From positions 4,820 to 68,819 of the forward strand of contig JBBILB010000005.1 of NCBI GenBank assembly GCA_037445145.1: 64,000 bases of DNA. Reading direction: 5' to 3'. The notes under the pieces were generated by a model that saw nothing but the letters and a program-made list of their open reading frames with translations, did no database searches and was not told where the DNA came from. Shown here in pieces: positions 3,694 to 60,729 of this stretch; the stretch's first letter is position 1; each line of letters begins with the position of its first letter. The DNA is from Candidatus Woesearchaeota archaeon. GTDB taxonomy: Archaea > Nanobdellota > Nanobdellia > Woesearchaeales > ARS49. The translations under genes and the position numbers were made by a program.

Positions 3694-3775
3694 GTTTGCG
3701 GGTTGTGTGTTATCTCTCCAAAATAGCAATATCAACAAAAGGTTTAAAATTGGCAGGCAGTTTCCACGCAGTTTA

Positions 3776-14622: not shown

Positions 14623-14687
14623 TTTTATCGTCACAAACATTTAAATACCAAATAACCAAGAATCCTGTTATAAAAGAGGTGTTTGTT

Positions 14688-16824: not shown

Positions 16825-16867
16825 ATGGGAACAGGATTTTTAAAGATTGTTATACTCTGCAACTGAT

Positions 16868-21527: not shown

Positions 21528-21576
21528 CAATATCCACCCATACCTACTACCTAGTAGCAATTCTTTATAAAACTTT

Positions 21577-30926: not shown

Positions 30927-31079
30927 TATTCTTTAAGAAAAGGTTTTTAAATGCTGTAACAGTATTATTGTGTGATAATAAATGGTTGCAGGCATTATGG
31001 AGCAGGCAAGAAAACTTCAGGACATGATAGGGCTTTTCCCCCTGCAAAAGCAGGGACAATAATACGCAGGGTGCTGTTC

Positions 31080-31634
31080 ATGATAAAGTCTGTGGACTAC
31101 CAGATAGAGAAAAATGCAGCACTTGTTGAACTCTATTATGGCAGCCCTCCTGGAATTGACAATGAATTTCTCAATTTTAGCGATTACTGGAGTGACGTGA
31201 TGGCAATCCTGCAAAGCGCGTCCAGGCTTGGGGAGAAGGCAAAGACTGTTTTTGGGTTTGAGCACGCCCTGCATACTTATTATCAGCTTAAGACTGGTGA
31301 GGCAGAGCAAATGCAGTACAAGGGGCTGTATGAGCGGATCGTGAAAGACCTGCAGGCTCTTACTGCCACGATTCTTGGCGAGGGGCGCGCGCTTGAAGAG
31401 TCAGGCGGGCTTGATTATACTATCATCCTGTCTGTTTTTCCAATGGGCCATGTTTTGCAGAGCCCGCGCGAACAGCATAATTTCCAGCTCCTTGAGGACA
31501 AATTGTTCCTTGACCCTAACCAGCTCAGGAATCTTAAGAAATTCATGTGGTCAAGCGATGCAGCCAATTTAAAGCCGTACGCTGTGGAGCTGACAGGGAT
31601 TAAGTATCATTTGCCCCATGTAAGCTTTACTTGA
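31080..31634 (+). CDS. Hypothetical protein (184 aa)
   Basis: ORF from MIKSVDYQIEK. 8-nt convergent overlap with the 3' end of the giant ORF. No family recognised. Confidence 0.5.
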   Translation: MIKSVDYQIEKNAALVELYYGSPPGIDNEFLNFSDYWSDVMAILQSASRLGEKAKTVFGFEHALHTYYQLKTGEAEQMQYKGLYERIVKDLQALTATILGEGRALEESGGLDYTIILSVFPMGHVLQSPREQHNFQLLEDKLFLDPNQLRNLKKFMWSSDAANLKPYAVELTGIKYHLPHVSFT

Positions 31635-34600
31635 GCTTTCTCAGCCTTTCCTTTCTTTCCCTCAGTTCTCTCAGCGCACTCTCAAGGTCTGCCTTAATCT
31701 CGGCAGGAGTCATTTCAGGCCTTCGCCTTCCTGCATACGCGCGCATTCCAAGAGCAATCATTACAAGCAGTATGAGCGCAATAGCGGCAATTCCCGCCCC
31801 TTTCATCGCGCTAATCCCCCATCCAAGCGTGCGGCCTGTGGGGGCAGCGTATTCCGCCTCTTTTTCAGGCAACTTGCCAAATGAAATTATTGACAACTCT
31901 TCCTCGCTTACAACCGGCATTGCGACCAGCTCTGCAACAGGTTGTTCTGCTGTTGATGCCAGTTCCCTGTAGCGTTCCTGCAATAATTTGGTTTCTTCTG
32001 GTTCTGTTGATACCCAATTGAGTGAAGGCATGTTTCTGATTTCAGGAGCGATGTTCAGTAATGCAACCTGTTGCTTGTTGAATTTTGAGACAAGGGCTTG
32101 TTCTTCAGGGGTGAATTCAGTCTCTATGGCTGCCTTGTTTTCAGGGTTTGCAAACCACAAAATTACTTTTTGATTGCTTATTGTTGGCACGGGTTTGCCG
32201 GTGTTTTTGTCCAGCATTTCAGCATCAGGCTCAATTATGCCCATAAGTTTTTGCTTGATTGCCTCAAAGGACATGTAATCCAGAGTGTTTGTCTTGCCAT
32301 ACCCAAATAGTATTCCTGTTGCTTCTGCACCACCCGACACCAGTTTCCTCCCTGAAATTTCTTGTATGACCTGTTCAAGTCCTTCATCTGTTTCCAGCTG
32401 TTTTACTTGCTCATCAGTCAGAACACTGCGGCCATTTGCCAGTTTTTCTGTGGAAAATTCCTTTAATGCCTGCCTTGCACGTGAAATGCTGTAGACGAGG
32501 GCTCCCTGACGCTGCTCACTTCCGCCCCTGACTAATGGCATGTTAAAGGGTTCCTTGAAAATAACCCGCAGGTCAGAGCCTGTGCGCCTGTTGAATTCCT
32601 CAATAAATGATTCCAGCTGGCTTGGTTTTACAGGCAACCCGTTGAGCGTTGTTGAGCCCTCCGGACCGTTGAATGCGATTAAACATGCAGGCCTTGCCCC
32701 AACAAGCACAGTGTATACTACTGTTGAGCGCGCAATCTGCCTCATAGGATCATCAATAGTGCTTTCTTTCAGGATTTCTTCAAGTTCTGCGGCCTTCCTG
32801 CCGGCCTCTGCCTTCAATGATTTAAACTGCTCAGCGGTCATGGTGTCAAGCAGTGCCTTTTCCGGCGCTCCAGGTATTTCCACGATAGGCACTTCTGCGG
32901 GCTTTGCCTTTGCTTTTTCAACCGCCCTTTGCAAGTCTTCAAGCTTCATCCCGCCCATTAATAGCGGGGCAAGGCTTTGGGGCTTGAGCCCTTTTGCCTC
33001 AAACTCACCGAGTAGCTCATTGCGCCTGACTGGGTCTGCTGTTGCAAATTCTTCTGCCAGCCTTGTCGCGTCCTCTGATGTGTATTTCTCAAGAAGGAAT
33101 AATTCCATGTTCAGCCTGAGGTTTGGAGCATCAGGTGTTTTCAGGATGTATTGTATTTCTGACGGTTCCTGTTCAATCCTTGCTTCTTGTTCTCCTCTCA
33201 TTGCTTTTGCGCGCAGGACGTCCTTCATCGTGGCTGCTCCGTACCACGGGTTTTCTGTCATGCTTGCTTCTTTTGCCCTGAGTGGATCAACACCTGCTTC
33301 GCGCGCAATCTTTTCAAGACTTAAGCGCAGTCTTGCTGCCTCTTCTGGCATTCCGCGCGCTTCTGCATCTGCTGCCTTTCGCGCAATCTCCTCGTACATG
33401 ACTTGCCATGGCTTGTTGCGTATGAGCAGTCCTGGATCAATCAGCATTACTTTCCCTGTTGCGGGGTCTATTATGAGGTTGTTGGCAATGTCCTGGATGC
33501 CATAGCTTCCCTTGTTTGGTCCTGACTCAATTCCGCGGTAGAGTGCATCAACGATTTCGTCAATCTTCTTTGATGCTGTCTTTCGCACAGCCTCGCGCGC
33601 TTCTGCAGGGGTAAGGTCAAACACGTTCTTGCCTTTTGCAACGTCTATCATGTATGCATAATTTGTTCCTTCAGCACGCACAAGCCCCCACGTTTCTGAC
33701 ACAGGCAGCCCGAGTTCGCGCGCGATTGAGTATTTTGACGGCTGTCCTTTTGCTTCAACAACGTCATTGAGGAAAAAGTCAACAACAACATCCTTGGGAG
33801 CAAACATTTTCACATGCTCAAATGCCTTTTCGCTCATGAACTTGACTGCCTTTTCCTTAATTCCAACACCGGGAATCTCAACGTCTGCAAGGAATACCGT
33901 GCCAAATCCTCCTTCGCCAAGGAGTTGTTTCAGCCGCACTACTCTCGGAGCTGTTGCAAGCTTTTCCTCAAGGCCCGGAATGAGCTTGTTCGGCGCAAAC
34001 TCTCCCTCAGGCCTTGCTCCTGTTGTTATTCTTGTAAGGACATCATCCAGTTCTCTTGCACGGTCCCTGAGCTCGCCAAACTTTGTCCATTCCTCAATGC
34101 TGAGCTCTGTGTGCACACGTGCAGCATCTGCTTCTTCAAAGAGTTTCTCAGCACGTTCTCTTGCTTCCCTTGCGTTTTTCCTTGCTGTTTCAATGTCAAG
34201 CCTGCCAAGGGCGTCATTTGCTTTGCCTGCGAGTTCTTCCACAGCAGTCCATTCTTTTGCCTGTGTTTGTGTCAGTGTCGGCCGCAAAACCTTCACTTCC
34301 TCAATGGGTGGCTTTGCTTCTGTTATTGCTTTCCTTGCTGTTTCAATTGTGCTGGCCAGGAAGTCCAGTCCCTTGAGCTCGAGCGCCGTGCGCGCGGTTG
34401 TCTCAGCAGGCTTGCTTTCAATCATTGTTTCTGTTCTTGCAGACATTACTCTCTGTTGTTCAAGCAGGCTTCTCATCTCGGTGAAGCGTGCTGATTCTTC
34501 AGCAAGTACAGACTGGACTTTGCGCACGTTCTGGAGCTTTGCCTCGTCAAGCACGGCGCGTTCTCCTGTAAGCACTTCGTTCTCAAGCGCCTTGCGGTAT

Positions 34601-37600
34601 GCGTCAAGCTCTGAGCGTGCTGCTTCAAGTGTTGCGGCGTCAAGCCTGCTGAGTTTTGCTGCTGCTGGCTCCTTTGCAGCAGTTCCTGCGCGTTCTGCTT
34701 CCTTGAGCACCTCACTCACAAATGCGTCTTGTGCAGACTCTATCCTCCATCGTCCGACTTCTTTGGGTATGATTCCTTTCTCAATCTCCTGACGCGCAAT
34801 CTCAGACACTGCTCTCAGTCTTTCAGCAGCAAGCTCAATTGGTGTTTTTTCAACAGGTCTTGGCGGTGCTGCTTCTGCAGGCTTTGCTTCTGCCGGCTTT
34901 GGAACTGTCCTTTCAACAATGTTGCCAAGCTCTTCAACGCGTATTGGTTGTCCTTCTGGTGTTCTTCCGCGGACATCTCCAAGGTCCTGTACAAGGAGGC
35001 TGATTTCGTTGTCAGTTATTTCCTGCCTGATAATGTCCCTCTTGCCTTCAAGCACTTCTATCAGCATGCTGACATCTGCATCTGTTACTTTTTCAAGTTC
35101 AGGCCTTGTTTCGCGAAGCTTCTTGCGCACGGCATCAAGCCTTGAGCGGGTGCTTTCTTTTTGTACTTCTTTGATTTCTGTCGCCACCCTGCGTGCAAGA
35201 TCAGGGCTGGTCCTCTCAAGTTCTTCAATTACTTTTGGTGTTGTAGGCGGCTTGCGGGCTGCATCAACTAGCGACTGCACTCTTGCAGTTTCCTCTGCCA
35301 CAAGGGATGTTGATGTTCTTCCTGCCTGTGCCTGCGAGCGCACAGTGTCGTATGCCTGCGCTGCCTGTGTTTCTCTTGCGCGCAGGTACGCCTTTGCTAT
35401 TGCCTCATGGGCTGCAGTGTGGGCTTCAATTGCGCGCTCTGGAATGACTGCGCCTGGTGTTCCTCCGCGGACAGCCGGCATTCCAAGCTCGCCTGTGAGC
35501 CTGCCTTTGCTGACTGTTATTTCAGGGCTTATGCGTGGCAACAAGTCCGGCGAAACCTTCCTTGCAGTTCCCACAAGTTCGCCGATTGTGAAGTCTGTCG
35601 TGATGCGGAAGCCCTCTGTTGTTCCTGAAATGTCCTTTCTGATGATTTCGTTTGACAATTCTGCAGCGCGCATCTGCTCAATGATGCTGTTTCTTGCGTC
35701 TGATATTCTTCCGTACTGGTCTGCAAGTTCGCGGTATGCCAGTGCGCGGTACGTTTCCTCTGACGCAAACCTTGACCTGATTTCAGAAGGCAATGACTTC
35801 CATTCCCTTCCGCTGAGCAGGTTGTCAAGCCTGTTCATTATTGCGTTCTGTTCTGCTTTCATCAGGCGGTCGCCAAGCTGGACCCTTTCTGCCTGTATGT
35901 TCCTGATTGCTTCAGCGTACTTATCATTGGCAAGCCAGCGGTTGTCACGCAGTGCATCAAGGAGTTGCCTTTCTCTGACTGCAAGGTCTTCCATCCTCTT
36001 TTCGTATCCTGCGCGCGCAACCTCAAGAGACTTGCCATTCCACTTCAATGTATTTTCCTCAATGAATGTTTCGCGCACGTTTCGCGCAAGGGCGCCGCCT
36101 GTCTTGATGCTTCCCAGCAGGACGACCTGGTCAAGGATTATGTCGCCCCAGTCAATTTGCTGTCCTGCTGATGCCCTGCTTATTGCGTCCATTGTGCTGA
36201 ATGCGCCGACCTCAAGCCCGAACTCATTGACTTTAATTGCGCCTTCAATGAACTTGCCTCTTTGCACATTAGCCAGCACCTTGCTTTCAACAAGTGATGC
36301 TGCCTCATTTGCCCAGGATGAAGTCAGTGTCCTGTATAATGAGTTCATCCCCAAAATTCCCCCCATTATTGCTACAGAATGGGCAAATGCAGTCGGGCTC
36401 CATGCTTCTGCGCTGAAGTCACCTGACATTATGTTGTTTGATGCGTGGAATGCAAGCCCGTTGGAGATTATGCTTGTTGCTGTTGTTGCCCATCGTGATG
36501 CTCCGTATGCCTCTGCAAGTGACTGCATTGCTCCGCCAACAAACCCGCCGACTGCACCTGAGCCAACCATTATGACTGCAGAGCCTGCTGTGTCTCCAAA
36601 GCGCTTTTCAAAGTCCTTCCTCACAAACCAGTCTTTTACCTCGCCGTACTGTTTCTGGGCGGATGATATCTTGCTGAATGTCTCCTTCAGTTGTTGTTTT
36701 GTTGTTTCCGAGAGTCCTTCCATCCTTTCTGCCTGTGCAGCCATTGACATGACATTTGCAAGGATTCCTGACACCATTTCTGCATTTGCCCGGTATTTGG
36801 TTGTCCTGCTGTCCTCAACAATCTTGCTTATTCCGAAAGAAACAATATTTTCAAGTGTGTTTGCCTCGTGGATGTCATACTTTTTGAGCGTGTCAAGGAC
36901 ATCGCTGTTAGCGTCTCCGCTCATGCTGGCAACAATCCCTGCTGCGCTTGCAATTGCCTGAGCCCTTGCGTCTGCAGGGTTCATCTTCGGGTTCTTGCGC
37001 AAAAGCTCCTGGGAATGCATTTCAACATACTTGCTGATTTTATCCATTATTTGCTCGCCATATGTCTGCGTGCCTGCTTTGGCAAGCTCAAGGTCTCCTC
37101 CATATTGTTCCTGCAGTCTTTCGTCAAGCCATTCAAAATCTTTCCAGGCACTTCCTTTGCGTGAACTGATTGTGCCGTAATCGTCAATAAGATGCACTAT
37201 GTCCTTAATTGCCTGTTCTTTTTCTATGCGCAGGTCATCATCACTTGTCATTATCATTGACAGGGCGTGCATGCTGTCGCGCTGTCCTTTGAGCGCATAA
37301 AGTTCTGCGCGCGCCTGGTCAATGTCAAACTGGCCGAACTGGTCGCCAAATCCTTGCTCACGCGCTTTTGTCTGCGCAAGTATTGCCTTGTCAAGCTTGA
37401 GCTGGGCTGCGGCGATCTGTTTGTCAAGGTCCTGCAGGCTGTTTTGATAGAACTGCCTCATGTTGTTATAGTCCGTTGTTCGCACATCAGTGCCTGCAGA
37501 AAGAGTCTGGAATTCGCCAGAAAGCGCCTGGTATTCTGGCAGGGTTTCAACGTCGATGCCAGATGCCTGAGCCTGTTTCTTTAGCTCATTCATTCTAATT

Positions 37601-52600: not shown

Positions 52601-55600
52601 GAGGTTGCAGAGCCGTTCTGCCAGTCCACCTGGCCAATGATTAAGTCTGTTATGTTGTCATTGTTAAGGTCTGCTGTTGCAAGAGCAATGTCAGTTATTG
52701 AGCTCACGTTGATTGTGACATTGAGTTGTTCACGCGTTATGTTTATGTTTCCTGTCTCGTTGTACATGAACAATATTCCGACTGTCTTGTTTCCTGGCGA
52801 TGCAACAATGACGTCATCCCTTGTGTCATTGTTCAGGTCTCCTGAGGCTATTGCGCGGCCAAGGTTGTCTTCTGCATTGACTCCGTTGATTGTTATGTTG
52901 GAAATTGTTGTTGCATTGCCGCTTGGAATGTATGGGTACACGCCATACATGATGTAAACCCTGCCCACATTCCTCTTTGAGGCATTGGCTGCTGCATAAG
53001 GCGCTGAAACCACCATGTCCTTTTGGCCGTCGCCGTTCATGTCTCCTGCTGTTCCGGCATATCCAAACCCGTCGCCTTCAGTCTGGTTGTTTGTCAGGTT
53101 TGTTGTCGTGCCTGTGTATGTCGCGTTTGCGCGCAGTGAGGCATTTGTTATATCTCCTCTACAAAGTATTGATGTGTCATTCACGACATAAGTGCAGAAG
53201 TCAGAGACATTGAACAGTATCAGCCCGGGGTCCAGCTGGTTGATTGTACATTTTTGCGAGCAGTTCACGAACGTGCCGTCATCCTCAGGGTCCACGAGGA
53301 TGTTTGGCTCAAGGAACAGGTTGATGAAAGTGATGGCAGCAGACTTATTGAGTTCCTGCGCGCGTGTGGAATTGACAAACACAGAATTCAGGGCGACATT
53401 CATTGCGTCAGAGAACGTCAGGGGGTTGTTGAATGAGAGGTTTGTTGGGTATGTAAGGATTGCCGAGCCCTGGGTGCCGTGCTGGCTTTCAAAGGTTGAG
53501 TTCGCAATGAGTGTTGTGTTTGCAATGGTGTTGCCATACCCGCCGTTTGTTATGTTCAGCGAGCCCCTGATTCCTGCCAGCAGGGTGTTATTCCTGATTG
53601 TGTTGTTTATGCCTCCTGCAAGGATAATGCTCCACAAATTATCGGCAAAGGTGTTTGTGCTTATTGTGTTGTTTGTTGCGCTTGGGTCTATCCTGATTCC
53701 TGCCTGCGAGTTATTTGCAAAAGTGTTATTCTCAACAAGGGTTGTGCGGACGCTGTCAGAGAGCCGTATGCCCTGCGTGTTGTTGTAAAGCATGTTGCTT
53801 GCAATGGTGCTGTTGTATGCTCCACCTGAAAGAAGTATTCCTGCGCTGCTGTTGCTTATCCTGTTGTCAATGATTTCTGTCGTGGTCGGGTAGCCCTTGA
53901 AGATTATTCCTGCGTTTGTGTTGTTCCTTAATGTGTTGTTGATGAACAAAATGTGGCTTGATGAGCCGTTGATTATGACTGCGTTCCTGCTGTTTGTCAA
54001 CAGGTTGAATGTCACGTTCACCCTTGCGTCTGTGCCGAAGTTTGCGTTCAGCGTGTTGTTGGTGAATTGGTTGTTTGTTACGTTGCTGTCTGACGTGAAG
54101 TGCATGTAGAGCCCTGTTGTGAAGTTGCGCACAATGCATCCTGTAATTGTTACATTGCTTTTGCCTTCGCAAATTATTCCAATGCCTGTCCCGTTTCCTG
54201 TTATTGAGAAGCCGTTGCAGTCAAATAAGGTATTGCTGTCGCCGATTGTGAAGCAGTCTCCTGTTGCGTTTATGTCTGCCATCAGTGTTGCGTTGCCGCT
54301 TACCTGCCCGCAGCTCGTGATGTTGCCCTGCAGTAGCCTGTAGCTCGTGAACTGCGTCACGTTCATCACGTAGACATTGCCTGAATAGCTTACGAATCTG
54401 CAAATGCTTTCTGGGCAGTCCTCATATGTGCCATCGTCCTCCGGGTCGCGCTGTGGCAATGGGTTGTTGAGAATCACGTTGTCAAACCTGACCTTGCCTG
54501 TCGTGTTCATGAATGTCAGGTTTGTGCTGTTCAGGTATGCTCTGTTTGTCGTGATGTTGAGCTTTGTCTTGCGGATGTCAACAAGCCCTTCTATTGTGAA
54601 GTTGTCAAGCTCAATGCGCCCTGCACTCATTTGGAAGGTTGTGTTTGAGAAGTTAGCATAAGTTGCCCCGCCTGTAACGTCTGTTGTGAAGAACACCCAT
54701 TGTGTGGGGTTGTTGAGGATTGTCCTGTTGAATGCGGTGTGGTTGACTCCTTCAAGAAATATCGCGTAGCAGTTGGTGCAGGTTGTTGTTATTGTATTCC
54801 CGACAAAAGTGTGGTTTTCTGCGTAAGTGAGGCTTGCGTTCTGGTAAATGCCGTGGCTCTCGTATCCTGTGCCCACTTGTATGTTGTTGTCAAGGACTGA
54901 CAAGTGCTGGACTGTTTCGTAAATGTTCAGTCCGTGGTTGGCAAGGTTGTCGGTGAGAGATGCGTTTGCGCTGGTGATGACTGTGTTGTTCGCAATGAGA
55001 TTGCTGCCTGCATTGACCTCAATCCCGTAATTGTTGTACTCGCCGCGGGTATTCAGGCGGTTGCCGGTTATCCTGTTGAAGCTTGAAGCAATGATGAGTC
55101 CCACATTGTTGCCTCCATTTCCAAATGCAGTGATGTTGTTGCGGTCGATTGAAATGTTTTCACCCCACTGCTGGATGATGATTCCGCGGCACGTGGATGT
55201 TCCGTTTGCCACTATCCTGTTGTGCGTGATGTTTGTGTCGTGCACGTATGAAGTGAAAATGCCGTAATTGTTGGTTTGTGCGCCTGTTTTTATGTCGTTG
55301 CCGTCAATGACAGTGAGCGTGCCGTTGTAGTAATAAATGCCGTGGCCGTATACTGTGCTGTTGGTCATGATTGTGTTGTTGGCAATGATTGATTCATTGA
55401 CTTCTGTCAGGTTTATGCCGTAGCCGTTGTTGCCGCTTGCATTCACGTCCTGTATGACGCAGTTCTTGATGGTGATGTTTGTCACGTTTACTGCAGCAAT
55501 TCCAAAGTCCCTGTTTCCACCATGCACGTTGTACTTGATTGTGTGCCCTGCGCAGTCAAGCGTGATGCTGCTGTTTGCAATGATAAAGCAGGTTGTGTTT

Positions 55601-57042
55601 GAGATTACACTCTGATTGAGCGTGACGCTCGTATTAAGCACAGAACAGCCGAGCTCTGGCGGCAGGTCCTGCTCGTACATTGAGCCGCAGCCTCCAAAGC
55701 CCACAATGTCAGGATAAGCTGATGCTGTCATTCCGAAAAAGTGCAATGTTGTTGGTGCAATGTCGCACTGCTTCCTGAACCCTGCTGTTGTCGCATTCGC
55801 TATCAGGCTTGCATTGTTCGTGATTAACGGCAAAACTGTTGTGTTCTCATCAAATGTTGAGTGCCCTGAAGTTCCTGAATTCCAGCCGTGGTCTGCTGTT
55901 ATGATGATTTGGGTGTGGTTTTCAAGCCCTGTATCCCTGAGAGTGTCCAAAAGCATTCCGAGAGCGCGGTCAATCTCGAGGAATGATGCATTGTATTCGT
56001 GCGACTTGTCTGTATGCACATGTCCTGAACAGTCAGGAGTGCCGAAATACATGAAGAGGTAGAATGAGCTGTTTGTGTTGTTGATTATGAAGTCTATTGC
56101 CCTTGTTGAGACATTCCTGTCGTACGCGCAGGCAGTGCCGTCCACCCAGTCTGTGTTCTCGTAGTTTGTCCTGTTCTGCCACCAGTCAACAGCAGGCTTG
56201 TCATTTGTGAGTATGCCGTCAGGAATGTAGCAGGTTTGCTTGCCGTAAACAAGCCCTGTGGCAATGCTTGTGTTGTAGAGGTTAAGGCGCCCCCATGTTG
56301 TGTTTCCTGAGGGTATTGCGTTCGGGCACGTGTTGTCCCATATGCCTGTGCGTGTTGCATTAAGCCCTGTGTGGAGTTCTGCATTGCCAGGCGCGGTGGC
56401 TGTGTAATTGTGGCCTGTTATGTTAAGTGTTGTATTCATGCCGCCGTACTGCATGAGGCGCGTGAAGTTTGTGAGGTTTCCTGCCTCAAGCATTGCCACA
56501 TAATTGCTGTTCAAGAAACCGTCAATGACTATGACTATGAGCCTCTTGTAATGCAGGTTTTCTGCTGTTATCCCAAGCTCTGATGTTCCAAGACTTGCAG
56601 GTGGCTGGTCTTCTTCGCCAAACTCGAATATTTCTGATTCAGCGCCAATGTGGAGCCTGAACCTTGGCACCCTGCTGTCCTCAAGAAGAACATTAAGCGT
56701 AACAACGTCATTCGGGCTTGCGTTCTCAAGCACAGAGAACGTGTGTGTCACGTCTCCTTCTACCCATACTGGCAGTGGCTCTGGAGCATTGTGCGAGAAC
56801 CTTATCTTGAGTATGCTTTCTGTCCGTTCTATGCTGATTATTCGTGTTTCAAAGGCAGGGTCGTCTGTTATCTTCCAACCCACTACTTTTCCGGTGTTAT
56901 CCGAGAGTTCTGAGATTGCCCTTCCGGTGAGTGATTTTGTTGTGCTTGTGTTTTTGGCTATGAAAAATACAGCGATGACAATGGCAAGTATGATAAGAAA
57001 CCTAACTATGAGCGCCTCTATTCGCTTTGTTGTCACAACCAT
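31627..57042 (-). CDS. Giant multi-anchored mosaic surface/signalling protein (8,471 aa)
   Basis: One ATG-initiated ORF of 25,416 nt with no stop. Recognisable domains run along its whole length (listed below). All long antisense ORFs are Ser/Ala/Leu-rich artefacts. Confidence 0.9.
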   Translation of the reverse strand: MVVTTKRIEALIVRFLIILAIVIAVFFIAKNTSTTKSLTGRAISELSDNTGKVVGWKITDDPAFETRIISIERTESILKIRFSHNAPEPLPVWVEGDVTHTFSVLENASPNDVVTLNVLLEDSRVPRFRLHIGAESEIFEFGEEDQPPASLGTSELGITAENLHYKRLIVIVIDGFLNSNYVAMLEAGNLTNFTRLMQYGGMNTTLNITGHNYTATAPGNAELHTGLNATRTGIWDNTCPNAIPSGNTTWGRLNLYNTSIATGLVYGKQTCYIPDGILTNDKPAVDWWQNRTNYENTDWVDGTACAYDRNVSTRAIDFIINNTNSSFYLFMYFGTPDCSGHVHTDKSHEYNASFLEIDRALGMLLDTLRDTGLENHTQIIITADHGWNSGTSGHSTFDENTTVLPLITNNASLIANATTAGFRKQCDIAPTTLHFFGMTASAYPDIVGFGGCGSMYEQDLPPELGCSVLNTSVTLNQSVISNTTCFIIANSSITLDCAGHTIKYNVHGGNRDFGIAAVNVTNITIKNCVIQDVNASGNNGYGINLTEVNESIIANNTIMTNSTVYGHGIYYYNGTLTVIDGNDIKTGAQTNNYGIFTSYVHDTNITHNRIVANGTSTCRGIIIQQWGENISIDRNNITAFGNGGNNVGLIIASSFNRITGNRLNTRGEYNNYGIEVNAGSNLIANNTVITSANASLTDNLANHGLNIYETVQHLSVLDNNIQVGTGYESHGIYQNASLTYAENHTFVGNTITTTCTNCYAIFLEGVNHTAFNRTILNNPTQWVFFTTDVTGGATYANFSNTTFQMSAGRIELDNFTIEGLVDIRKTKLNITTNRAYLNSTNLTFMNTTGKVRFDNVILNNPLPQRDPEDDGTYEDCPESICRFVSYSGNVYVMNVTQFTSYRLLQGNITSCGQVSGNATLMADINATGDCFTIGDSNTLFDCNGFSITGNGTGIGIICEGKSNVTITGCIVRNFTTGLYMHFTSDSNVTNNQFTNNTLNANFGTDARVNVTFNLLTNSRNAVIINGSSSHILFINNTLRNNTNAGIIFKGYPTTTEIIDNRISNSSAGILLSGGAYNSTIASNMLYNNTQGIRLSDSVRTTLVENNTFANNSQAGIRIDPSATNNTISTNTFADNLWSIILAGGINNTIRNNTLLAGIRGSLNITNGGYGNTIANTTLIANSTFESQHGTQGSAILTYPTNLSFNNPLTFSDAMNVALNSVFVNSTRAQELNKSAAITFINLFLEPNILVDPEDDGTFVNCSQKCTINQLDPGLILFNVSDFCTYVVNDTSILCRGDITNASLRANATYTGTTTNLTNNQTEGDGFGYAGTAGDMNGDGQKDMVVSAPYAAANASKRNVGRVYIMYGVYPYIPSGNATTISNITINGVNAEDNLGRAIASGDLNNDTRDDVIVASPGNKTVGILFMYNETGNINITREQLNVTINVSSITDIALATADLNNDNITDLIIGQVDWQNGSATSRGRVDVIFGRNEWPSQINLSQDANATFNGTDAGAYFGFSLATGDVNGDGMLDLAIGAPGTNITGVYKVGKVYVFYGSPEFGSRTIAEANLTLQGEPQVNGLNNTLALTGFSMYLRGDVNNDSISDILIGAPRGIAPPDKRDAGTAYIVFGGNNTGTINLSNANVTLYGVFGNELGVPPGERAGTSIFARDISNDSIADIYVGAPRAHVNGIMDAGITYTIYGRIEWPRFLNLTTNNITLCGQDENGLFGYSVFNGSTGVGKPGSKPKPTTTTTTSSENSETTTTTTTTTEQTTTTTTEETTTTTASPTTGGTFVLMGKFSELQELPEQEPVTQEQPAWLEAQEQPLSIQADSGSGGSQSSPQGDLLGDDVEMPDDAGQASDYDNPPPEPPTTTTTTTTTETTTTTTTTEETTTTTTTTTTETTTTTTTTSGPTGGGGGGGGGSCWQQWSCYEGPPKGVDFTQPYNELIYCDEYGPGNPPIGPCSIESVEQQVADSAYAKCCKTTTTTTTTTSEPLCGCPKACPLLDPLDNIPCPKPEEKEEAERVECGDGKPTELHQIEALKSQAKHEIMQEEIKRMTDEIIAASRAALGLPGQTADQLEQAYQPVTPEEAMRLEREEKAREEARKAMLGLAVHPLYKEQTALFRSNCIACNPLAQQKGNFITGPAALEGPNYAAPAQQITGNQKTKLKEDVLKTEDALTKLAQEDPALAQRVSAEVEECDARHKGAVEIGIPGGMPDISTAETRALANEMCAMKYGEPTMCDYQKCKCIPPCPDEQSHKPHPLITEIGYNFIEIFNPTEEAVDLGDGWGFEADFETTALPKEPPITYEEFMHIIGTWPAPGDTGIPPRTQILIAYSSNVNTASVASTTMPVTGPDGLVPGEYIVVDNLIIFTPAEPLRPFTAYSVSAEGIKSTTGRKSAPGKFSFETGSGISTYVPPDVCSADFLTEGGGVQTIHAPMSTELSNDLSALQSSNEKQVRNAVVALRYNHDPCVEPALSEIMNDPEATPQARENAMNILADKGSLDPEDLKAIAEEIPELAEPAREAMKKMPLVAKIPYGTMSTESMIRFDDKNVRAGLLGITAWQVAELGKESAKVSVSFTGPPPADDAPSIMPVFSDAKTSKPDEIIASAHPTDFNTALIDVATAIDTAFSAQGVPTQEIPPELEKAITPSTSIGTLKFMFPSSGASTLEPGGVKVVMINEEFIKEFGIMPDFMVGSGGYELEVPRMIPQFAQTPDLDIDKIRIAQTGHAELFREIPREYPVTPPEQPPEEGPEMPEPTEPMPVEETEQEVPPLAEPTQEPEPVLEPEQLCETVTDPSQGTDVAPAGEVDASQLPEGYEIIMAFNTTCEEGSKIDLSINIPDNFIDVRAFLQAAGSTSDVPSQTGFDPECNGMSSSAIRAQQIAQSRGEYYALREMPVILTQQAVTAPETTVSLATSGYAVDISQATGTANVSLSMPTNDVPYPANPSARIIGTPLLVSLSKPISGMVRVTFPLAIPKFIDPESIGVYVLIGNTWRQLNTEQGNDSISAVVEDIRPFLARNENGTYHVLFALAGIYCSTCPVTKLEKVYDGGMLDGKRTAVVLVHGITTDNLRWQFLIDDFAQTKQPFQVWLFSYPLTLSPEEAAAELASQLEQHASEYDQLVFITHSMGGIEAQLALDYGAKNNYGFVRKAKRAVFAGQPGLGSPTAEVYGRLFAFLLNLKSTAMLFSQNASMLKAAIEGIQVPRKPGIEYYVIAGRQPYKFTVDLFTKNGEYTPNDGIISTLSARSVGNSEITDMCNNYFEVPLTHTDLIDASLSRRIMERIVAKEYANAHPDMALIGYNKIVNINAECVPGAYIIAGRRISEAETEAPLLCNCGNGVCGEGENEVNCPSDCAVDVTYFFTCRVAPWLLYPAAFILLIVSAVYASRATKRHKYGRGAKTLLAITGIIVIAFIAMHATCRIPPLIGYGILIFIGVLLALTDFHVKHYKNPLFVICAVFVLMLAGFAGMQEAGSIFGQQITGAIAEEDIIENNVYVIMPEHRAEIIGSELAGSGVVMDLGVPLEEKKSASGFPLGVIDHVAHYNLDPRPIETLKIVIAGFDYDKNSATVRIKNVGTGMYVFTNELLRIKAGGNLWLDQIPYGYWLMPGEEGTFRFGSRTPEIASENSEFAGFVEQAETPESQEPLTEKPAIYSFPSPVHVHYGDLMLLTEVLLLGPGNDLPEIPTAPAVLALEGGLPATAERTEKLDREVLDYILLPAEQAELDLVALGGGVRYESRPGVLPDQDGGTPMVSKPEQRSNDFKHVLVENASMLENRLIDAAESVYGRGKNTTLARQAVGEFLAKKLESEEKAPVRLSIMPITGGVIFNLPRDKTLDVTETRKAFEEERGLSPLHEQAAKATELYASIISESPAQMILNAETASQTAALKPAKPAGGDLAVLYTLMPDQLLGGDLAITASLQNGKFLMLTADSPGQGATAAGIKAIIHDIVTKLIAGRVQNRSGQTILDPVSAQSILEYPPLLLEYLNNNTQGLFMPGANAVVSAAVYYPDSGYVVFSGAGLPVYVVAGKQLTEYDFPGAIGTNPDGKYTANYTLLDIEHMLFMPSIGIREQLNYTEVPFVETIDFNITLYMMSTYDSETSAAKLQEALDKHRGRNTTNEQPQEDEYSAIILRKITYPGGMPAGMPRQPAAPEAPGLLPPEEEAPPEFQPPEELPREGIPPERGIPSGGEIPPGGAVPVTFTPPKPEIYGRTWNRVDYEETSENKGGQPAGGVPAETIRSDMQETRFNTEYIAKQAGIIPPQGVWYTPMTGAAITDITGMQTAETIPVTEPTSTVNQLIETVAPAGASFATKAILVNNILQAAGTAEDIQSFQSTQLVQKAKAELIAELEAPVEGEKARQELIDYAVRDPNAPTLGEQIIDSIIDTATSAPGTANIAKLAKDTYNNALDARLNNLKTGLGRGRHQSATGHDEYSENPAVAGKMLEATPGGLPPKEEAKPTPPPQAQPASFSDTAQGKTQNAMDNLLISQARGYADRLSEAGLGQEAQDYLQRLSQAEHLRISGASAFGTAPVYVMPTITAGQTQQGITSTAGGTPITATTQKQSITAQQPTYTLPETTGYAITESGTPPVDEQQVLKERMQAAGYSTALQQQALTLTSKQDNAGLTTGLEGAPEVQDFLQEKALSDDFTMPAPKPVLTEKQKAIAALYVLEKGQGFGEGYDTSDLEAQFSKIDPDIQKSILEKLKGMELTSDGMPSCMRADISWTEEELKAIRSINFPTELVTRNPKPGERPQTPPDPAAELYGKLQEFFNQVVDEKTGRTLMDAIKSNMYSAEALQGIVKSLKKHKSPLGDIDTARLETLGNELEKLIDNNFETMTLLGNIIQAEAGSRLAQNSLSLYSNRQKIIAEQGEAAYAALELKNNLAREYEMLKAQESALHEAFYKGKASAADLQNTRQARQALERQITIADNPALKAKYDELKTIEAQEKELFERGLISLEEFEKARNKRKAFEESIQANRGAIRNLYKGFDKIDWKELGKKVNKMQEDLAGSIAANDADEKENPPKPDPKTGEMPPAKKAADKAKKAAEEAHKYTKQALQGNRAAIKNKMAAVASAQKEKELADALKQCEEYNKKVKEFNAIIAAWMDEDVVCQYLKCPLAEAGGNVITAAIIAPLRKLVAPITGMQGLGILTEQQLREAAGESQATNVQYKGGEGEPPLGEGTPETYGAGAPSGVVMSPDFFGLEGECEKICKEDCIRDCGWAETGITTLEPSLTIPGLVVEKTTMVPGCWVREGKECLAPPQFFEENKATKLKDLFDRLVRQAEEAAATGLAMKKTGLGAFSQTKDGNRQTVTDKYGYTETAPPTQLPTIILPDKIPKLEQQNALRRIEEARRAAQTIRAAIKSGGRHAMAKAAKDAIDAFEAMKEGLSAETRAQIEAIKEQIAAAEQELKDNAVRAKNFQLLVREGLEATGETDKFGRQVYTDVNGRRWVLMDMNGDGIEDERVLEAAGLAPIPPKQFVPPERKPGETDKEYNTRATEEFVRTQMRFDDWQEDLAKVRKEFPDAFRTLTKYMQDKFREISQTVARGTAGLQSVRQAAYTEAERMTIQKIKNDFLKTAQLDGNYDLQFLGYDKAGKPVIEILRLDENDKPIGKVIMNSIGVDAAAMSEITARTEGLSGKEYEDALKQVLDELGIDPAGIRNGMVYTSDEFYLDMDTTGFTAEDTRNLLNLPTGVYSFKTDAQGVIKDAKGNIVLGKAMLALTDANGNILRDKAGNPIPADPTNPPPNAVPVEIIVPQHVQDAYAQAGILLGMYQNGEIDKDHLITNLKLLEEDFLKGIPPERLEAMSTRVIETIGAGDMSLAGISERFRLMQEMTDTALLEEATTLISQFVQAGTTDRRLVSLSDQLVTYDELERGVSSVIEYMDISQRLDDILIKAGTSAEQFSKLSQKEQLALVNGLAGRSDIPADQLTMQERLEARKLLGDLIRLEPRTTTADSISQAIMDYNKAVIDDIRMRAQSGEALTAEEREVAKQDMLIRLETRFNEEQAIGDWANAGSIADIIAEEFAAEAYNLGIDLAAWKEDKKNLIASMDNILAMQKSASGIARAKETLKARSPTAYARLMELEQTEDPELRQQMLNEIYSTPEYYGMAASDVNALKAYLNEQAMAIEDARVATRDEKRIQELKENIAFFAKQYTIDKGSEELEAKKDALMSRISYFEKEIKADQELLREGRITRDQFNTRLAANNARVKELKNSIAQTHREILGNLFDKYIAELTPEQLMFTGIQQKHDEYKSLVQQREELSKALLAATTPETQQYISDQITKLDQQISDAISVMSDAMPLTTGAGLIGSTARSQATVESALANAIRMNDLALTTDKEIKEMVTKNQDAIGRINPKDVQKSLRDLETGTISEREAAASSLSYQTDKISSLVRDIEHLIQIRQARTAQGVEVSDIDEQIAILRKMAADAVPILQEIATGHSADIASASNKALSDFRILNDRQRLSEILAENERLTTVTIRMNELKKQAQASGIDVETLPEYQALSGEFQTLSAGTDVRTTDYNNMRQFYQNSLQDLDKQIAAAQLKLDKAILAQTKAREQGFGDQFGQFDIDQARAELYALKGQRDSMHALSMIMTSDDDLRIEKEQAIKDIVHLIDDYGTISSRKGSAWKDFEWLDERLQEQYGGDLELAKAGTQTYGEQIMDKISKYVEMHSQELLRKNPKMNPADARAQAIASAAGIVASMSGDANSDVLDTLKKYDIHEANTLENIVSFGISKIVEDSRTTKYRANAEMVSGILANVMSMAAQAERMEGLSETTKQQLKETFSKISSAQKQYGEVKDWFVRKDFEKRFGDTAGSAVIMVGSGAVGGFVGGAMQSLAEAYGASRWATTATSIISNGLAFHASNNIMSGDFSAEAWSPTAFAHSVAIMGGILGMNSLYRTLTSSWANEAASLVESKVLANVQRGKFIEGAIKVNEFGLEVGAFSTMDAISRASAGQQIDWGDIILDQVVLLGSIKTGGALARNVRETFIEENTLKWNGKSLEVARAGYEKRMEDLAVRERQLLDALRDNRWLANDKYAEAIRNIQAERVQLGDRLMKAEQNAIMNRLDNLLSGREWKSLPSEIRSRFASEETYRALAYRELADQYGRISDARNSIIEQMRAAELSNEIIRKDISGTTEGFRITTDFTIGELVGTARKVSPDLLPRISPEITVSKGRLTGELGMPAVRGGTPGAVIPERAIEAHTAAHEAIAKAYLRARETQAAQAYDTVRSQAQAGRTSTSLVAEETARVQSLVDAARKPPTTPKVIEELERTSPDLARRVATEIKEVQKESTRSRLDAVRKKLRETRPELEKVTDADVSMLIEVLEGKRDIIRQEITDNEISLLVQDLGDVRGRTPEGQPIRVEELGNIVERTVPKPAEAKPAEAAPPRPVEKTPIELAAERLRAVSEIARQEIEKGIIPKEVGRWRIESAQDAFVSEVLKEAERAGTAAKEPAAAKLSRLDAATLEAARSELDAYRKALENEVLTGERAVLDEAKLQNVRKVQSVLAEESARFTEMRSLLEQQRVMSARTETMIESKPAETTARTALELKGLDFLASTIETARKAITEAKPPIEEVKVLRPTLTQTQAKEWTAVEELAGKANDALGRLDIETARKNAREARERAEKLFEEADAARVHTELSIEEWTKFGELRDRARELDDVLTRITTGARPEGEFAPNKLIPGLEEKLATAPRVVRLKQLLGEGGFGTVFLADVEIPGVGIKEKAVKFMSEKAFEHVKMFAPKDVVVDFFLNDVVEAKGQPSKYSIARELGLPVSETWGLVRAEGTNYAYMIDVAKGKNVFDLTPAEAREAVRKTASKKIDEIVDALYRGIESGPNKGSYGIQDIANNLIIDPATGKVMLIDPGLLIRNKPWQVMYEEIARKAADAEARGMPEEAARLRLSLEKIAREAGVDPLRAKEASMTENPWYGAATMKDVLRAKAMRGEQEARIEQEPSEIQYILKTPDAPNLRLNMELFLLEKYTSEDATRLAEEFATADPVRRNELLGEFEAKGLKPQSLAPLLMGGMKLEDLQRAVEKAKAKPAEVPIVEIPGAPEKALLDTMTAEQFKSLKAEAGRKAAELEEILKESTIDDPMRQIARSTVVYTVLVGARPACLIAFNGPEGSTTLNGLPVKPSQLESFIEEFNRRTGSDLRVIFKEPFNMPLVRGGSEQRQGALVYSISRARQALKEFSTEKLANGRSVLTDEQVKQLETDEGLEQVIQEISGRKLVSGGAEATGILFGYGKTNTLDYMSFEAIKQKLMGIIEPDAEMLDKNTGKPVPTISNQKVILWFANPENKAAIETEFTPEEQALVSKFNKQQVALLNIAPEIRNMPSLNWVSTEPEETKLLQERYRELASTAEQPVAELVAMPVVSEEELSIISFGKLPEKEAEYAAPTGRTLGWGISAMKGAGIAAIALILLVMIALGMRAYAGRRRPEMTPAEIKADLESALRELRERKERLRKLK
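31744..31824 (-). other. Giant protein aa ~8407-8433: C-terminal TM anchor followed by a 38-aa basic tail
   Basis: GWGISAMKGAGIAAIALILLVMIALGM, then RAYAGRRRPEMTPAEIKADLESALRELRERKERLRKLK. Confidence 0.75.
33388..33945 (-). other. Giant protein aa ~7700-7885: minimal protein-kinase-like domain (RIO/Bud32-size)
   Basis: G-loop LGEGGFGTV (33892-33921), AVKFM (beta3 Lys), hinge-like YAYMIDVAKG, catalytic-loop-like IQDIANNLII (D and N present), MLIDPGL in place of DFG. No activation segment or APE. Confidence 0.6.
33973..44295 (-). other. Giant protein aa ~4250-7690: about 3,400 aa of predominantly alpha-helical / coiled-coil sequence, no recognised enzymatic domain
   Basis: A/E/K/L/Q/R-rich heptad-like sequence. 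Contains scattered Cys-rich (CEKICKEDCIRDC) and Ca-binding-like (DMNGDGIED) islands. Confidence 0.55.
36330..36600 (-). other. Giant protein aa ~6815-6905: Gly/Ala-rich hydrophobic pair (possible TM hairpin or membrane-insertion element)
   Basis: SAVIMVGSGAVGGFVGGAMQSLA ... TAFAHSVAIMGGILGMNSLY, with GxxxG-like spacing. Confidence 0.4.
44413..44631 (-). repeat. Giant protein aa ~4138-4210: Pro/Glu/Gly-rich linker
   Basis: GGMPAGMPRQPAAPEAPGLLPPEEEAPPEFQPPEELPREGIPPERGIPSGGEIPPGGAVP. Confidence 0.8.
44638..45360 (-). other. Giant protein aa ~3895-4135: SpoIIE/PP2C-like segment, apparently degenerate
   Basis: LGGDLAI...LMLTADSPGQGATAAGIKA, then VVFSGAGLPVYVV, then MLFMPSIGIRE (the usual TDG Asp is absent), then EDEYSAIILRK. 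Collinear with SpoIIE motifs. Confidence 0.4.
46168..46377 (-). other. Giant protein aa ~3556-3625: possible CARDB-like beta-sandwich
   Basis: KIVIAGFDYDKNSATVRIKNVGTGMYVFTNELLRIKAGG resembles CARDB strands. Weak. Confidence 0.3.
46618..46956 (-). other. Giant protein aa ~3363-3475: cluster of four TM helices, preceded by Cys motif CNCGNGVCGEGENEVNCPSDC
   Basis: VAPWLLYPAAFILLIVSAVYA / TLLAITGIIVIAFIAMHAT / LIGYGILIFIGVLLALTDF / LFVICAVFVLMLAGFAGM. Basic loops follow TM1 (SRATKRHKYGRGAK) and TM3 (HVKHYK). Confidence 0.7.
47173..47880 (-). other. Giant protein aa ~3055-3290: lipase/esterase-like alpha/beta hydrolase
   Basis: VVLVHGITT (oxyanion region), FITHSMGG (GxSxG nucleophile elbow, 47644-47661), NDGIIS (Asp) and PLTHTDL (His). 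Collinear with class 2 lipase / PGAP1-like esterases. Confidence 0.7.
49438..49680 (-). other. Giant protein aa ~2455-2535: HEAT-like helical repeats
   Basis: VRNAVVALRYNHDPCVEPALSEIMNDPEATPQARENAMNILADKG resembles PBS/HEAT repeats. Weak. Confidence 0.3.
49807..50250 (-). other. Giant protein aa ~2265-2412: possible lamin-tail-like / bacterial Ig-like beta-sandwich
   Basis: LITEIGYNFIEIFNPTEEAVDLGDGW resembles the LTD start. LIIFTPAEPLRPFTAYSVSAEGIKS resembles SbsA-type Ig-like strands. Weak. Confidence 0.35.
51058..51810 (-). repeat. Giant protein aa ~1745-1995: poly-Thr / acidic-Gln / poly-Gly / Cys-rich low-complexity linker with tandem DNA repeat
   Basis: Thr runs at aa 1749-1790, 1871-1910 and 1983-1992; G9 run at 1915-1923. 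Near-identical ~50-nt units at 51314-51366 and 51377-51426 (63-nt period, one-codon indel). Confidence 0.85.
51823..53085 (-). other. Giant protein aa ~1320-1740: seven FG-GAP/integrin-alpha-like repeats (beta-propeller)
   Basis: GDGFGYAGTAGDMNGDGQKDMVVSAP; GRAIASGDLNNDTRDDVIVASP; ATADLNNDNITDLIIG; FGFSLATGDVNGDGMLDLAIGAPG; GFSMYLRGDVNNDSISDILIGAP; GTSIFARDISNDSIADIYVGAP; LFGYSVFNG. Confidence 0.75.
53353..54300 (-). other. Giant protein aa ~915-1230: parallel beta-helix module 2
   Basis: LFDCNGFSITG start, then repeats (..VTITGCIVRN.., ..NVTNNQFTNN.., ..ILFINNTLRNN.., ..TEIIDNRISN.., ..STIASNMLYNN.., ..TLVENNTFANN.., ..NTISTNTFADN..). Followed by a second DPEDDGTFVNC cap (53272-53292). Confidence 0.7.
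54643..55635 (-). other. Giant protein aa ~470-800: parallel beta-helix (PbH1/NosD-like) module 1
   Basis: About 22-aa periodic repeats (..NITIKNCVI.., ..SIIANNTI.., ..NITHNRIV.., ..ISIDRNNI.., ..NRITGNRL..). Followed by a capping region with DPEDDGTYEDC (54427-54447). Confidence 0.7.
55708..56547 (-). other. Giant protein aa ~166-445: alkaline-phosphatase superfamily, NPP/type I phosphodiesterase-like domain
   Basis: VIVIDGF (metal Asp), NYTATAPGNAELHTGL (Thr nucleophile region), GTPDCSGHVH (D..GH), IITADHGW (DHG), in the canonical order. Confidence 0.75.
56953..57015 (-). other. Giant protein aa ~10-30: N-terminal signal-anchor TM
   Basis: KRIEALIVRFLIILAIVIAVFFIAK: basic residues followed by about 20 hydrophobic residues. 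Confidence 0.7.
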
Positions 57043-57103
57043 CCCCTTTTTATCAGCAAATTAACAACAAGGGTATTTAAACCTTGCTATAATTATAGAC
57101 GAA
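57043..57103. promoter_or_regulatory. 61-bp divergent promoter region between the giant ORF and the PIG-V-like GT-C gene
   Basis: GGTATTTAAACC (about 57072-57083) lies about 20-30 nt from the plus-strand ATG (57104) and about 30-40 nt from the minus-strand ATG (57042). AAAAGGGG immediately precedes the giant ORF ATG. Confidence 0.45.
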
Positions 57104-60420: not shown

Positions 60421-60729
60421 ATGGCAGAGAACAAAGATGATGCAGCCTTGTTTCTCTTTGTTGCAGGCCTGCTTATTGCTCTTGCCATAATTGTGCTTCC
60501 TTTTGTGTGGTCTTTTGCAAAGGCAGAATTGTCAAAAACAAAGGTTTCTGTTATTGTTAGCGATGAGTGCAAGCCAGGCGCGCCTTGCCAGATCTGCACT
60601 GAAACAGCCCAAAACAGGTCGTGCATTACAGGTGTTTGTGATGCCCAGCAGAACTGCATTTCGCCGTCTCCGAAGAATGCCACGCCCAAAATTCCTGAGA
60701 AAGGGGTCAAGTCCTTGGTGATGAATTGA
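60421..60729 (+). CDS. Small membrane-anchored Cys-rich protein (102 aa)
   Basis: MAENKDDAALFLFVAGLLIALAIIVLPFVW TM, then a 6-Cys ectodomain. The stop overlaps the next start (TGATG). The ORF-track start at 60328 lies inside repeat copy 2 and was rejected. Confidence 0.5.
   Translation: MAENKDDAALFLFVAGLLIALAIIVLPFVWSFAKAELSKTKVSVIVSDECKPGAPCQICTETAQNRSCITGVCDAQQNCISPSPKNATPKIPEKGVKSLVMN

Follow-up and report, generated by a model that had tools for sequence, protein, structure and literature searches.

In a 64,000-nucleotide stretch of a Candidatus Woesearchaeota genome (contig JBBILB010000005.1, forward-strand positions 4,820 to 68,819; below, the window), one gene on the reverse strand, at 31627..57042, encodes a protein of 8,471 amino acids (aa), to which we refer here as the giant. 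We estimate a probability of about 60% that the giant is an almost entirely extracellular envelope protein, consisting of a glycan-shielded adhesin half that carries scavenging enzymes and a bare helical arm that is anchored at both ends and presents exchangeable, phospho-enzyme-like modules. This reading is drawn from sequence. Essentially the whole polypeptide is predicted to lie outside the cell because of three features taken together, namely the charge pattern around its membrane segments, an additional transmembrane (TM) helix at the start of its C-terminal half, and the distribution of N-glycosylation sites along the chain.

The open reading frame (ORF) starts with ATG and runs for 8,471 codons to its stop without any internal stop codon, a stop-free length with a chance probability of ∼1e-177. 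A single uninterrupted ORF of 25.4 kb had been proposed, with no strand given, in an earlier reading of the letters and the ORF listing (the original prediction), and we confirmed it both by that listing and by open orthologous frames in two further assemblies. On the 73.9-kb metagenome contig FWPU01001348.1 (L006), one frame of 7,334 codons contains no stop over the 22,004 nucleotides (nt) fetched, and it is colinear with the giant at 80% identity over aa 139-4161 and at 55% over aa 4208-7396. In JAWCLR010000007.1 (L005), from the metagenome-assembled genome (MAG) Candidatus Woesearchaeota archaeon JZ-2_201705_bins_23, the frame is open for 6,046 codons from the edge of the locus. It aligns with aa 2613-7572 of the giant at 69.6% identity over 5,004 aa, running straight past the point where the hydrolase/TM module gives way to the C-terminal half, and a second alignment covers aa 8391-8471.

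Sequon distribution and predicted topology

The three membrane-anchor sites of the original prediction were recovered by Kyte-Doolittle analysis. The first, at aa 10-28 (56959..57015; this and all features of the giant given below lie on the reverse strand), is a signal anchor or the h-region of a signal peptide, with a mean value of 3.17 and with K6 and R7 preceding it. The second comprises four segments in aa 3365-3471, forming a cluster of 4 TM helices (aa 3366-3471; 46630..46947). The third is a C-terminal TM helix at aa 8415-8433 (2.58), followed by a conserved basic tail of 38 aa (RAYAGRRRPEM...RLRKLK; helix and tail, 31630..31800), and this anchor with its tail is 67-80% identical in L005 and in the relatives P0007 and P0010. 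Two further candidates were discarded. Additional TM helices in the Gly/Ala-rich sequence of aa 6815-6990 were rejected because its Kyte-Doolittle values do not exceed 1.54, and a PGF-CTERM/archaeosortase signal was rejected by eye given the lack of a PGF motif and the 38-aa tail after the TM helix.

The sequon N-x-S/T (x not P), at which archaeal AglB attaches N-glycans (PMC8342417), is distributed very unevenly along the giant. With expected counts obtained by shuffling and the reversed motif S/T-x-N as a control, aa 29-1750 were found to contain 107 sequons against 38 expected (z 13.5, a 2.8-fold excess; reversed motif, 39 against 37). In the region that follows the fourth TM helix (aa 3472-4116; 44695..46629), there are 7 to 8 sequons against 2.8 expected (reversed motif, 2 against 3.0), including conserved ones inside a SpoIIE-like domain. 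The acidic, helix-rich arm beyond it (aa 4117-8414; 31801..44694) contains none at all where 17.1 would be expected (z -4.6, Poisson probability ∼4e-8), and there the reversed motif occurs 17 times against 17.4 expected and other motif spacings are also normal. Orthologous arms are likewise free of sequons, both in L005 (16.7 expected) and in L006 (16.3 expected), where the arm includes a block only 20-40% identical to the giant; the distant relative P0012 has none against 17.2 expected. In contrast, nine cytoplasmic proteins of the window used as controls have 11 sequons against 11.2 expected.

With a secretion signal at aa 10-28 and a sequon excess in aa 29-1750, the giant carries both marks of an N-glycosylated archaeal surface protein. 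The conserved sequons within the SpoIIE-like domain suggest that this domain, too, is outside and glycosylated. For the arm, we infer that selection keeps aa 4117-8414 free of N-glycosylation sites, and a purge specific to this one motif is hard to explain unless the glycosylation machinery can reach the arm and the arm must nevertheless stay unglycosylated. The charges around the membrane segments fit such an arrangement, loops 1 and 3 of the TM cluster being basic, the stretch after the fourth helix (TM4) acidic and the C-terminal tail strongly basic. The topology that we predict thus has the N terminus inside, aa 29-3364 outside, four TM helices with loops 1 and 3 inside, aa 3472-8414 outside, and finally the C-terminal TM helix with its tail inside. 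TM4 is missing from short homologues of the giant, in which the three TM helices are followed by a short basic tail, and it stands exactly where the extra 5,000 aa of the giant begin; its gain is what one expects if the appended region had to lie outside. The sequon statistics and the extra helix hence back the cell-surface placement of the original prediction, which we regard as probable.

The C-terminal 5,000 aa could instead be cytoplasmic, in which case the giant would be a surface receptor or adhesin joined to a giant intracellular PP2C/kinase signalling scaffold, the far end of which the C-terminal TM helix would tether to the inner face of the membrane. We consider this unlikely. The C-terminal half is preceded by four TM helices rather than three, and TM4 is exactly suited to leaving the cytoplasm; the stretch after TM4 is acidic and the C-terminal tail strongly basic, and sequons are enriched and conserved in aa 3472-4116, in part inside the SpoIIE-like domain itself. 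A total, motif-specific loss of sequons over 4,300 aa also has no known cytoplasmic cause, and the control proteins show normal counts. Several observations nevertheless weigh against the extracellular reading, and some of them directly favor a cytoplasmic arm. The composition of aa 4200-8414 (K+R 11-15%, D+E 14-16%, Cys 0.2%; rich in A, E, K, L and R) is cytoplasm-like. SpoIIE/PP2C and protein-kinase-like folds are normally cytoplasmic, working with ATP or Mn2+, so that SpoIIE-family homology and kinase-like motifs in the giant point to chemistry usually found inside the cell. No AglB gene lies within the 64-kb window, and N-glycosylation in this organism is consequently deduced from the sequon enrichment itself. 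AlphaFold2 models of the region with the kinase-like motifs were too poor to decide, with a predicted local distance difference test score (pLDDT) of 38.6 for aa 7670-8400 from the single sequence and of 52 for the kinase-like module from a five-sequence alignment. Finally, the ATPase that follows the TM segment in giant proteins of Nanohaloarchaeota is cytosolic (PMC10266531).

Unusual sequon counts were also observed in other proteins. The 9.4-kb contig L007 (1-9394) is a single open frame throughout and encodes the distant relative P0012, whose domains include LTD and, with 27% identity, a kinase-like module; P0012 is apparently a second giant of this family, though a distant one. In L001 (4269-14809) and L003 (9801-12035), short paralogues have 34-43 sequons in their first ∼440 aa and almost none later, and a secreted 744-aa neighbor has none against 4.3 expected. 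A pattern of either enriched or purged sequons may be general among secreted proteins of these archaea.

Exchangeable modules near the C-terminal anchor

The orthologues differ between aa 7590 and 8390 of the giant. A segment of ∼190 aa just before this region (the linker; aa 7395-7590, 34273..34860) recurs in relatives on either side of variable modules. In the giant, the region holds a kinase-like module and, at aa 8090-8390 (31873..32775), an unassigned alpha/beta region that is not conserved in L005. L005 has a canonical SpoIIE phosphatase domain (89 bits) in place of the kinase-like module, with a different terminal domain after it. P0007, P0008 and P0009 contain this linker together with the kinase-like module and further inserts, the order differing between them, and P0009 adds HEAT repeats. 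The C-terminal anchor was kept in all cassette-variant relatives compared. As judged from these relatives, the shuffling of cassettes at this end of the giant is typical of interaction or effector proteins. Farther upstream, a mosaic block at aa 6100-7100 (35743..38745) is only 19-42% identical to L006, compared with 70-80% in its flanks, and 57-88% identical to L005; inside it lies a conserved Gly/Ala-rich hydrophobic core (aa 6815-6990).

A kinase-like domain had been proposed for this part of the giant, and the proposal stood as far as conserved motifs and weak kinase profile matches go, but not in any match to the Pfam kinase family. The minimal module in question (aa 7695-7890, ∼200 aa; 33373..33960) carries GEGGFGTV, AVK, DIANN and DPG, and the motifs GxGxFGxV, AxK, DIA..N and DxG do not vary among five relatives with identities as low as 27%. 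When a profile of five relatives was compared with the PDB, almost only protein kinases were returned, at weak scores (E 0.002-0.4, the best being PKR at 0.002), and an alignment with VRK1 spans the G-loop to the DFG motif. HRD and APE motifs are absent from the module, and no match was obtained from Pfam (Pkinase, PF00069) or NCBIfam at E<=0.1. When 1.84 billion representatives were searched exhaustively with phmmer, only six proteins came up, all of them members or fragments of the giant family and none a canonical kinase. A Foldseek search with the model of pLDDT 52 gave no significant match; the top of its list consisted of kinases that matched the N-lobe. The protein-kinase-like nature of aa 7695-7890 is thus unproven.

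Cassettes that are swapped between orthologues and flanked by a recurring ∼180-aa linker would also suit a polymorphic-toxin or contact-dependent effector device like CdiA, Rhs or MARTX, in which the C-terminal cassettes would be payloads for a neighboring host or competitor cell and the glycan-free arm would have to pass through the target envelope or insert into it. CdiA and MARTX are very long surface proteins with interchangeable C-terminal enzymatic modules bounded by conserved segments, and the giant resembles them in having exchangeable modules between conserved segments. The mosaic block, the minimal size of the kinase-like module, the purge of sequons from the arm and the faster evolution of the giant relative to its neighbors (∼70% identity to L005, against 92% for SRP54) can be read in the same way. 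We nonetheless regard this explanation as quite improbable, since the cassettes lie upstream of a conserved TM anchor and not at a free C terminus, and since the small ORFs downstream are conserved and housekeeping-like rather than variable immunity genes. Pfam, NCBIfam and PADLOC-type searches of the giant yielded no known toxin, pre-toxin, protease-release or immunity motif. The giant further differs from CdiA and MARTX in the absence of FHA, RTX or VENN-type motifs and of a cysteine-protease release domain, in the TM anchor that follows its modules, and in belonging to another domain of life with another secretion route. The exact linker duplicates of L005 could also be an effect of MAG assembly: there, the SpoIIE cassette lies between two identical linker copies of ∼170-180 aa (∼14380-14860 and ∼16740-17240), which could be either a recent duplication or collapsed strain variants.

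If the giant is indeed an almost entirely extracellular envelope protein, its N-terminal half would be a heavily N-glycosylated adhesin, in which a phosphodiesterase may scavenge nucleotides and a membrane-near Ser hydrolase may scavenge lipids; DPANN archaea are generally thought unable to make either. The lineage would have gained TM4 and ∼5,000 aa, that is, a glycosylated SpoIIE-like domain and then a 4,300-aa acidic, helix-rich arm that would terminate in exchangeable enzyme-like cassettes and a second membrane anchor. The whole could serve to contact or tether a partner cell or a substrate, with the glycan-free arm requiring naked surfaces for self-assembly, binding or passage into the partner. 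The host-contact organelle with effector-like modules of the original prediction is likewise hypothetical. It is a long shot, in our estimate, that the sequon-free arm is deployable and, on contact, inserts into or threads through the partner envelope, bringing the cassettes (and possibly the C-terminal TM helix and tail) to the partner membrane or to a cytoplasm with ATP; the giant would then be a single-polypeptide device for effector delivery or for a cytoplasmic bridge.

Integrity, domains and origin of the gene

Crude Nei-Gojobori ratios of nonsynonymous to synonymous substitution (dN/dS) between the giant and L005 are 0.11-0.37 in every 250-aa tile of aa 2600-7600, and those between the giant and L006 are 0.11-0.40 over aa 139-7400. 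A search for syntenic homologues, which the original prediction had called for, found L005, a Woesearchaeota MAG in which the gene order 3' of the giant is kept (o220, o151, o230 and SRP54, the last with 92% identity, onward to Dph6). A further 3.7-kb open fragment (L004; ERZ505355 NODE_15100) is 75% identical to aa 5943-7135. It has Nextera adapter/index sequence at both ends (1-69 and 3649-3720), from which the start and stop of its ORF, P0006, are derived, and we rejected it as a separate gene for 1,185 aa because both bounding stops lie in the adapter. Although the gene is extreme in length and the short homologues stop after the TM cluster, an assembly chimera, or a run of adjacent genes fused in appearance by sequencing error, is very unlikely and close to refuted, because three independent assemblies of different species-level lineages keep the frame open at all domain boundaries, that of the aa 3472 junction among them, because purifying selection acts in all tiles and synteny is conserved, and because the apparent stops of L004 are found only in adapter sequence. 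We conclude from these comparisons that the ORF is one genuine gene.

The sequence of the giant is compositionally complex. DNA-level tandem repeats are limited to its poly-Thr tracts (51067-51797), and concern over repeat-driven misassembly is therefore confined to the length of these tracts. In the 61-nt divergent intergenic region upstream, a TATA-box-like element that agrees with the archaeal consensus, TTTAAATA, was read directly at 57074..57081 (reverse strand), 32-39 nt 5' of the ATG; it is presumably the promoter element of the giant gene. GGGG directly precedes the start codon.

The adhesin-type and enzymatic modules that the original prediction had placed in the N-terminal half largely held up. 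An NPP-type phosphodiesterase of the alkaline-phosphatase superfamily (aa 168-440; 55723..56541) was detected by Pfam Phosphodiest (PF01663) with 56.2 bits (cut-off, 23) across aa 168-390 and profile positions 1-224 of 342, and by Pfam Sulfatase with 43 bits, the two matches covering aa 168-437. Alignment with ENPP1 identified as catalytic residues D174, the Thr nucleophile T216 (YTATAPGN versus PTKTFPNH), D337/H341 (PDCSGH) and D384/H385 (ADHG), and did not locate the last His metal ligand and the C-terminal third of the NPP fold in the giant. Two right-handed beta-helices follow, one at aa 470-640 (55123..55635; Pfam Beta_helix/NosD) and one at aa 947-1155 (53578..54204; Beta_helix 91 bits, NosD 70 bits, and five stretches of NCBIfam para_beta_helix). 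Next comes an FG-GAP, integrin-alpha-like beta-propeller of ∼7 blades (aa 1320-1745; 51808..53085), which scores 126 bits with PF01839, above the cut-off, in six stretches plus one in the next tile; seven blades of the DxNxDxxxD type can be read by eye, and integrin alpha chains in the PDB match it with an E of 4e-9. The poly-Thr, mucin-like linkers behind it (aa 1750-1995; 51058..51795) are 30% Thr, are encoded by tandemly repeated DNA and match Pfam Mucin weakly.

A module at aa 2765-3364 (46951..48750) defines the family and combines a lipase-like alpha/beta hydrolase with a Cys-rich knot, CNCGNGVCGEGE..C..DC. The hydrolase match falls below the Pfam cut-offs, only just for Abhydrolase_6 (PF12697; 25.1 against 26.3 bits) and more clearly for DUF7379 (PF24096; 19.9 against 33), and Pfam assigns the same families to the homologues P0002-P0004. 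The motifs VLVHG (aa 3063-3067, with the HG of the oxyanion site at 3066-67) and THSMGG (with Ser3130 at the nucleophile elbow) are conserved in P0001, P0002 and P0005. As acid and His of the triad, our guess would be D3250 and H3279.

Over aa 2765-3452, the giant is homologous at 35-58% identity to five Woesearchaeota surface proteins of 1,100-2,300 aa (P0001-P0005), in which this module is C-terminal. What these DUF7379/alpha-beta-hydrolase proteins have in common with the giant is the hydrolase together with the Cys knot (CNCGNGVCGEGE) and the TM cluster; P0003 also has the N-terminal segment and FG-GAP propeller of the giant. They end after three TM helices with a short basic tail and lack both TM4 and the C-terminal 5,000 aa. 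Since the module is C-terminal in these three-TM relatives and TM4 stands at the junction, the giant lineage seems to have extended an existing adhesin-hydrolase by one TM helix and a very large new region. In L001, the syntenic position, downstream of ProRS, is occupied by a tandem pair of genes for short homologues.

The SpoIIE/PP2C-like segment of the original prediction stood as regards homology, one catalytic Asp motif being missing. This domain (aa 3900-4135, within or next to the post-TM4 region) scores 19.2 bits with PF07228, below the cut-off of 25, and we accepted the homology because the L006 orthologue exceeds the cut-off with 38.6 bits. Of the metal-binding motifs, GGD and ADSPGQG are present, DD has become DE, and TDG is replaced by PSIG or PSWG in all three orthologues; the domain is probably catalytically degenerate. 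A resemblance of aa 3560-3620 (RIKNVGTG) to CARDB was noticed and is not claimed, there being no Pfam support for it.

A Pro-rich linker (aa 4136-4200) leads into the arm, which has no family match beyond the modules described separately. With the single sequence or with a three-orthologue profile, aa 4200-7600 gave no match in Pfam, NCBIfam, PHROGs, PADLOC or the PDB, and nothing in the PDB matched the C-terminal 5,000 aa by phmmer or by profile search. A word-indexed search for homologues was also negative, a result of low weight given that it missed the known fragment P0006 as well. Eight Cys residues, including a CxxxCxxxC motif, are conserved at aa 5088-5258 (41269..41781) in the three-orthologue alignment, a cluster that we count in favor of the predicted topology. 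The C-terminal part had been described as containing ∼3,400 aa of coiled coil, and this did not hold: in a Fourier test for heptad (3.5-residue) periodicity, a crude test by which the control tropomyosin reaches z 6.3 with all windows above 2, the mean z was 0-1.5 and at most one third of the windows exceeded z 2. Some heptad periodicity was seen in patches only, at aa 4750-5000 and 6000-6750. The arm is helix-rich and not a continuous coiled coil.

Neighboring genes and other giant proteins

The genes flanking the giant are archaeal housekeeping genes, encoding SRP54, diphthamide synthase, RtcB, an archaeal-type ProRS, AsxRS and an M17 aminopeptidase. Archaeal neighbors such as SRP54, diphthamide synthase, RtcB and ProRS, together with a Candidatus Woesearchaeota MAG as the closest genome, bear out the assignment to a small-genome archaeon, in this case of the DPANN group. 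No tRNA or Rfam match was found within the window. The 3' end of the giant gene overlaps by 8 nt (31627-31634) with a convergent ORF of 220 aa on the forward strand (30972-31634), for which no family match was obtained and which recurs at the corresponding place in L005 (58% identity). Just upstream of the giant lie three glycosylation genes, all on the forward strand: a weak match to PIG-V-type GT-C mannosyltransferases (57104-58291; E 0.005), a PMT_2 protein-O-mannosyltransferase-like gene (60726-61886; E 5e-22) and a GT2 gene (62763-63554; E 1e-40). Their products could modify the poly-Thr linkers of the giant, and we count this glycosyltransferase cluster in favor of the envelope-protein reading.

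Elsewhere in the window, a gene at 7328-9454 (forward strand) encodes a canonical eukaryotic-type Ser/Thr kinase (Pkinase, E 2e-46) with an NFACT-like helical region at its C terminus. An ordinary kinase is hence present in this genome, and it is unrelated to the kinase-like module of the giant. At the start of the window, a gene for a MacB/FtsX-type permease (36-2432, reverse strand) adjoins one for a CARDB-domain protein. Two ORFs, of 588 aa (14679-16445, forward strand) and 674 aa (19536-21560, reverse strand), have no Pfam match; they contain 0 sequons against 3.1 expected and 1 against 3.0, respectively.

The architecture of the giant had been put forward as one not yet described, and we indeed found none alike in Pfam, NCBIfam, the PDB, PHROGs, PADLOC or the searched literature, which contains no mention of a giant Woesearchaeota protein. 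One parallel is tetrabrachion, an S-layer protein of Staphylothermus marinus, which is glycosylated in its distal N-terminal part, has a long alpha-helical stalk to which hydrolases are attached, and is held in the membrane by its C terminus. It is a protein of 1,524 aa that forms a true four-stranded coiled coil, whereas the giant shows weak heptad periodicity, two anchor points flanking its arm, and embedded enzyme folds. In surveys, archaeal proteins longer than 5,000 aa are few, and none has this architecture (PMC11573180). Among bacteria, the giant multi-enzyme Archaeovorins of Omnitrophota (bioRxiv 10.1101/2023.11.21.568195) are similarly multi-enzymatic and largely non-repetitive, have TM segments, belong to ultra-small, host-dependent cells and contain cytoplasmic-type enzymes predicted to be extracellular. 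They are 3-10 times larger than the giant, however, and have another repertoire (glycosyltransferases, peptidases, NUDIX), with no homology detected.

A close parallel in kind is provided by the SPEARE proteins of Nanohaloarchaeota, which comprise 8,880-9,409 aa with a signal peptide, WD40 propellers, ∼75 Ig-like domains, a TM segment, a cytosolic VirB4/TraG ATPase and coiled coil (PMC10266531, citing Hamm et al. 2019). Like the giant, they come from DPANN archaea and are encoded by a single gene of ∼25-28 kb. They too carry an N-terminal secretion signal, have a beta-propeller and adhesion modules within a huge ectodomain, and continue after a TM segment with another large region that is helical or coiled-coil; a role in host contact has been proposed for them. 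There is no detectable sequence relationship, and SPEARE proteins consist mostly of Ig-like repeats with the VirB4/TraG-like ATPase, whereas Pfam and NCBIfam found no ATPase or Ig-type family in any tile of the giant. The giant in turn is distinguished by hydrolytic ecto-enzymes, the 4-TM cluster and second C-terminal anchor, the sequon-free arm of 4,300 aa and the exchangeable cassettes. On our best reading of these comparisons, it shares the general idea of SPEARE and none of its defining features, and would form a new family among the giant surface or contact proteins of DPANN archaea.

How DPANN archaea attach to and exploit other cells is little known beyond a few cultured Nanohaloarchaeota and Nanoarchaeota. 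The locus described here provides a concrete, conserved candidate for Woesearchaeota, a group without a cultured model, in which adhesion modules and intact-looking, putatively nucleotide- and lipid-scavenging enzymes are joined in one protein. The most useful result is, in our view, the sequon pattern, which offers a sequence-only readout of glycan-coated and bare parts in a giant archaeal protein and predicts that phosphatase- and kinase-like folds lie outside the cell. A complete and conserved removal of sequons over 4,300 residues, and folds of this kind that appear to be extracellular, would both be unexpected to a specialist. If the bare arm turned out to serve delivery or bridging, this would be a new mechanism of archaeal cell-cell interaction.

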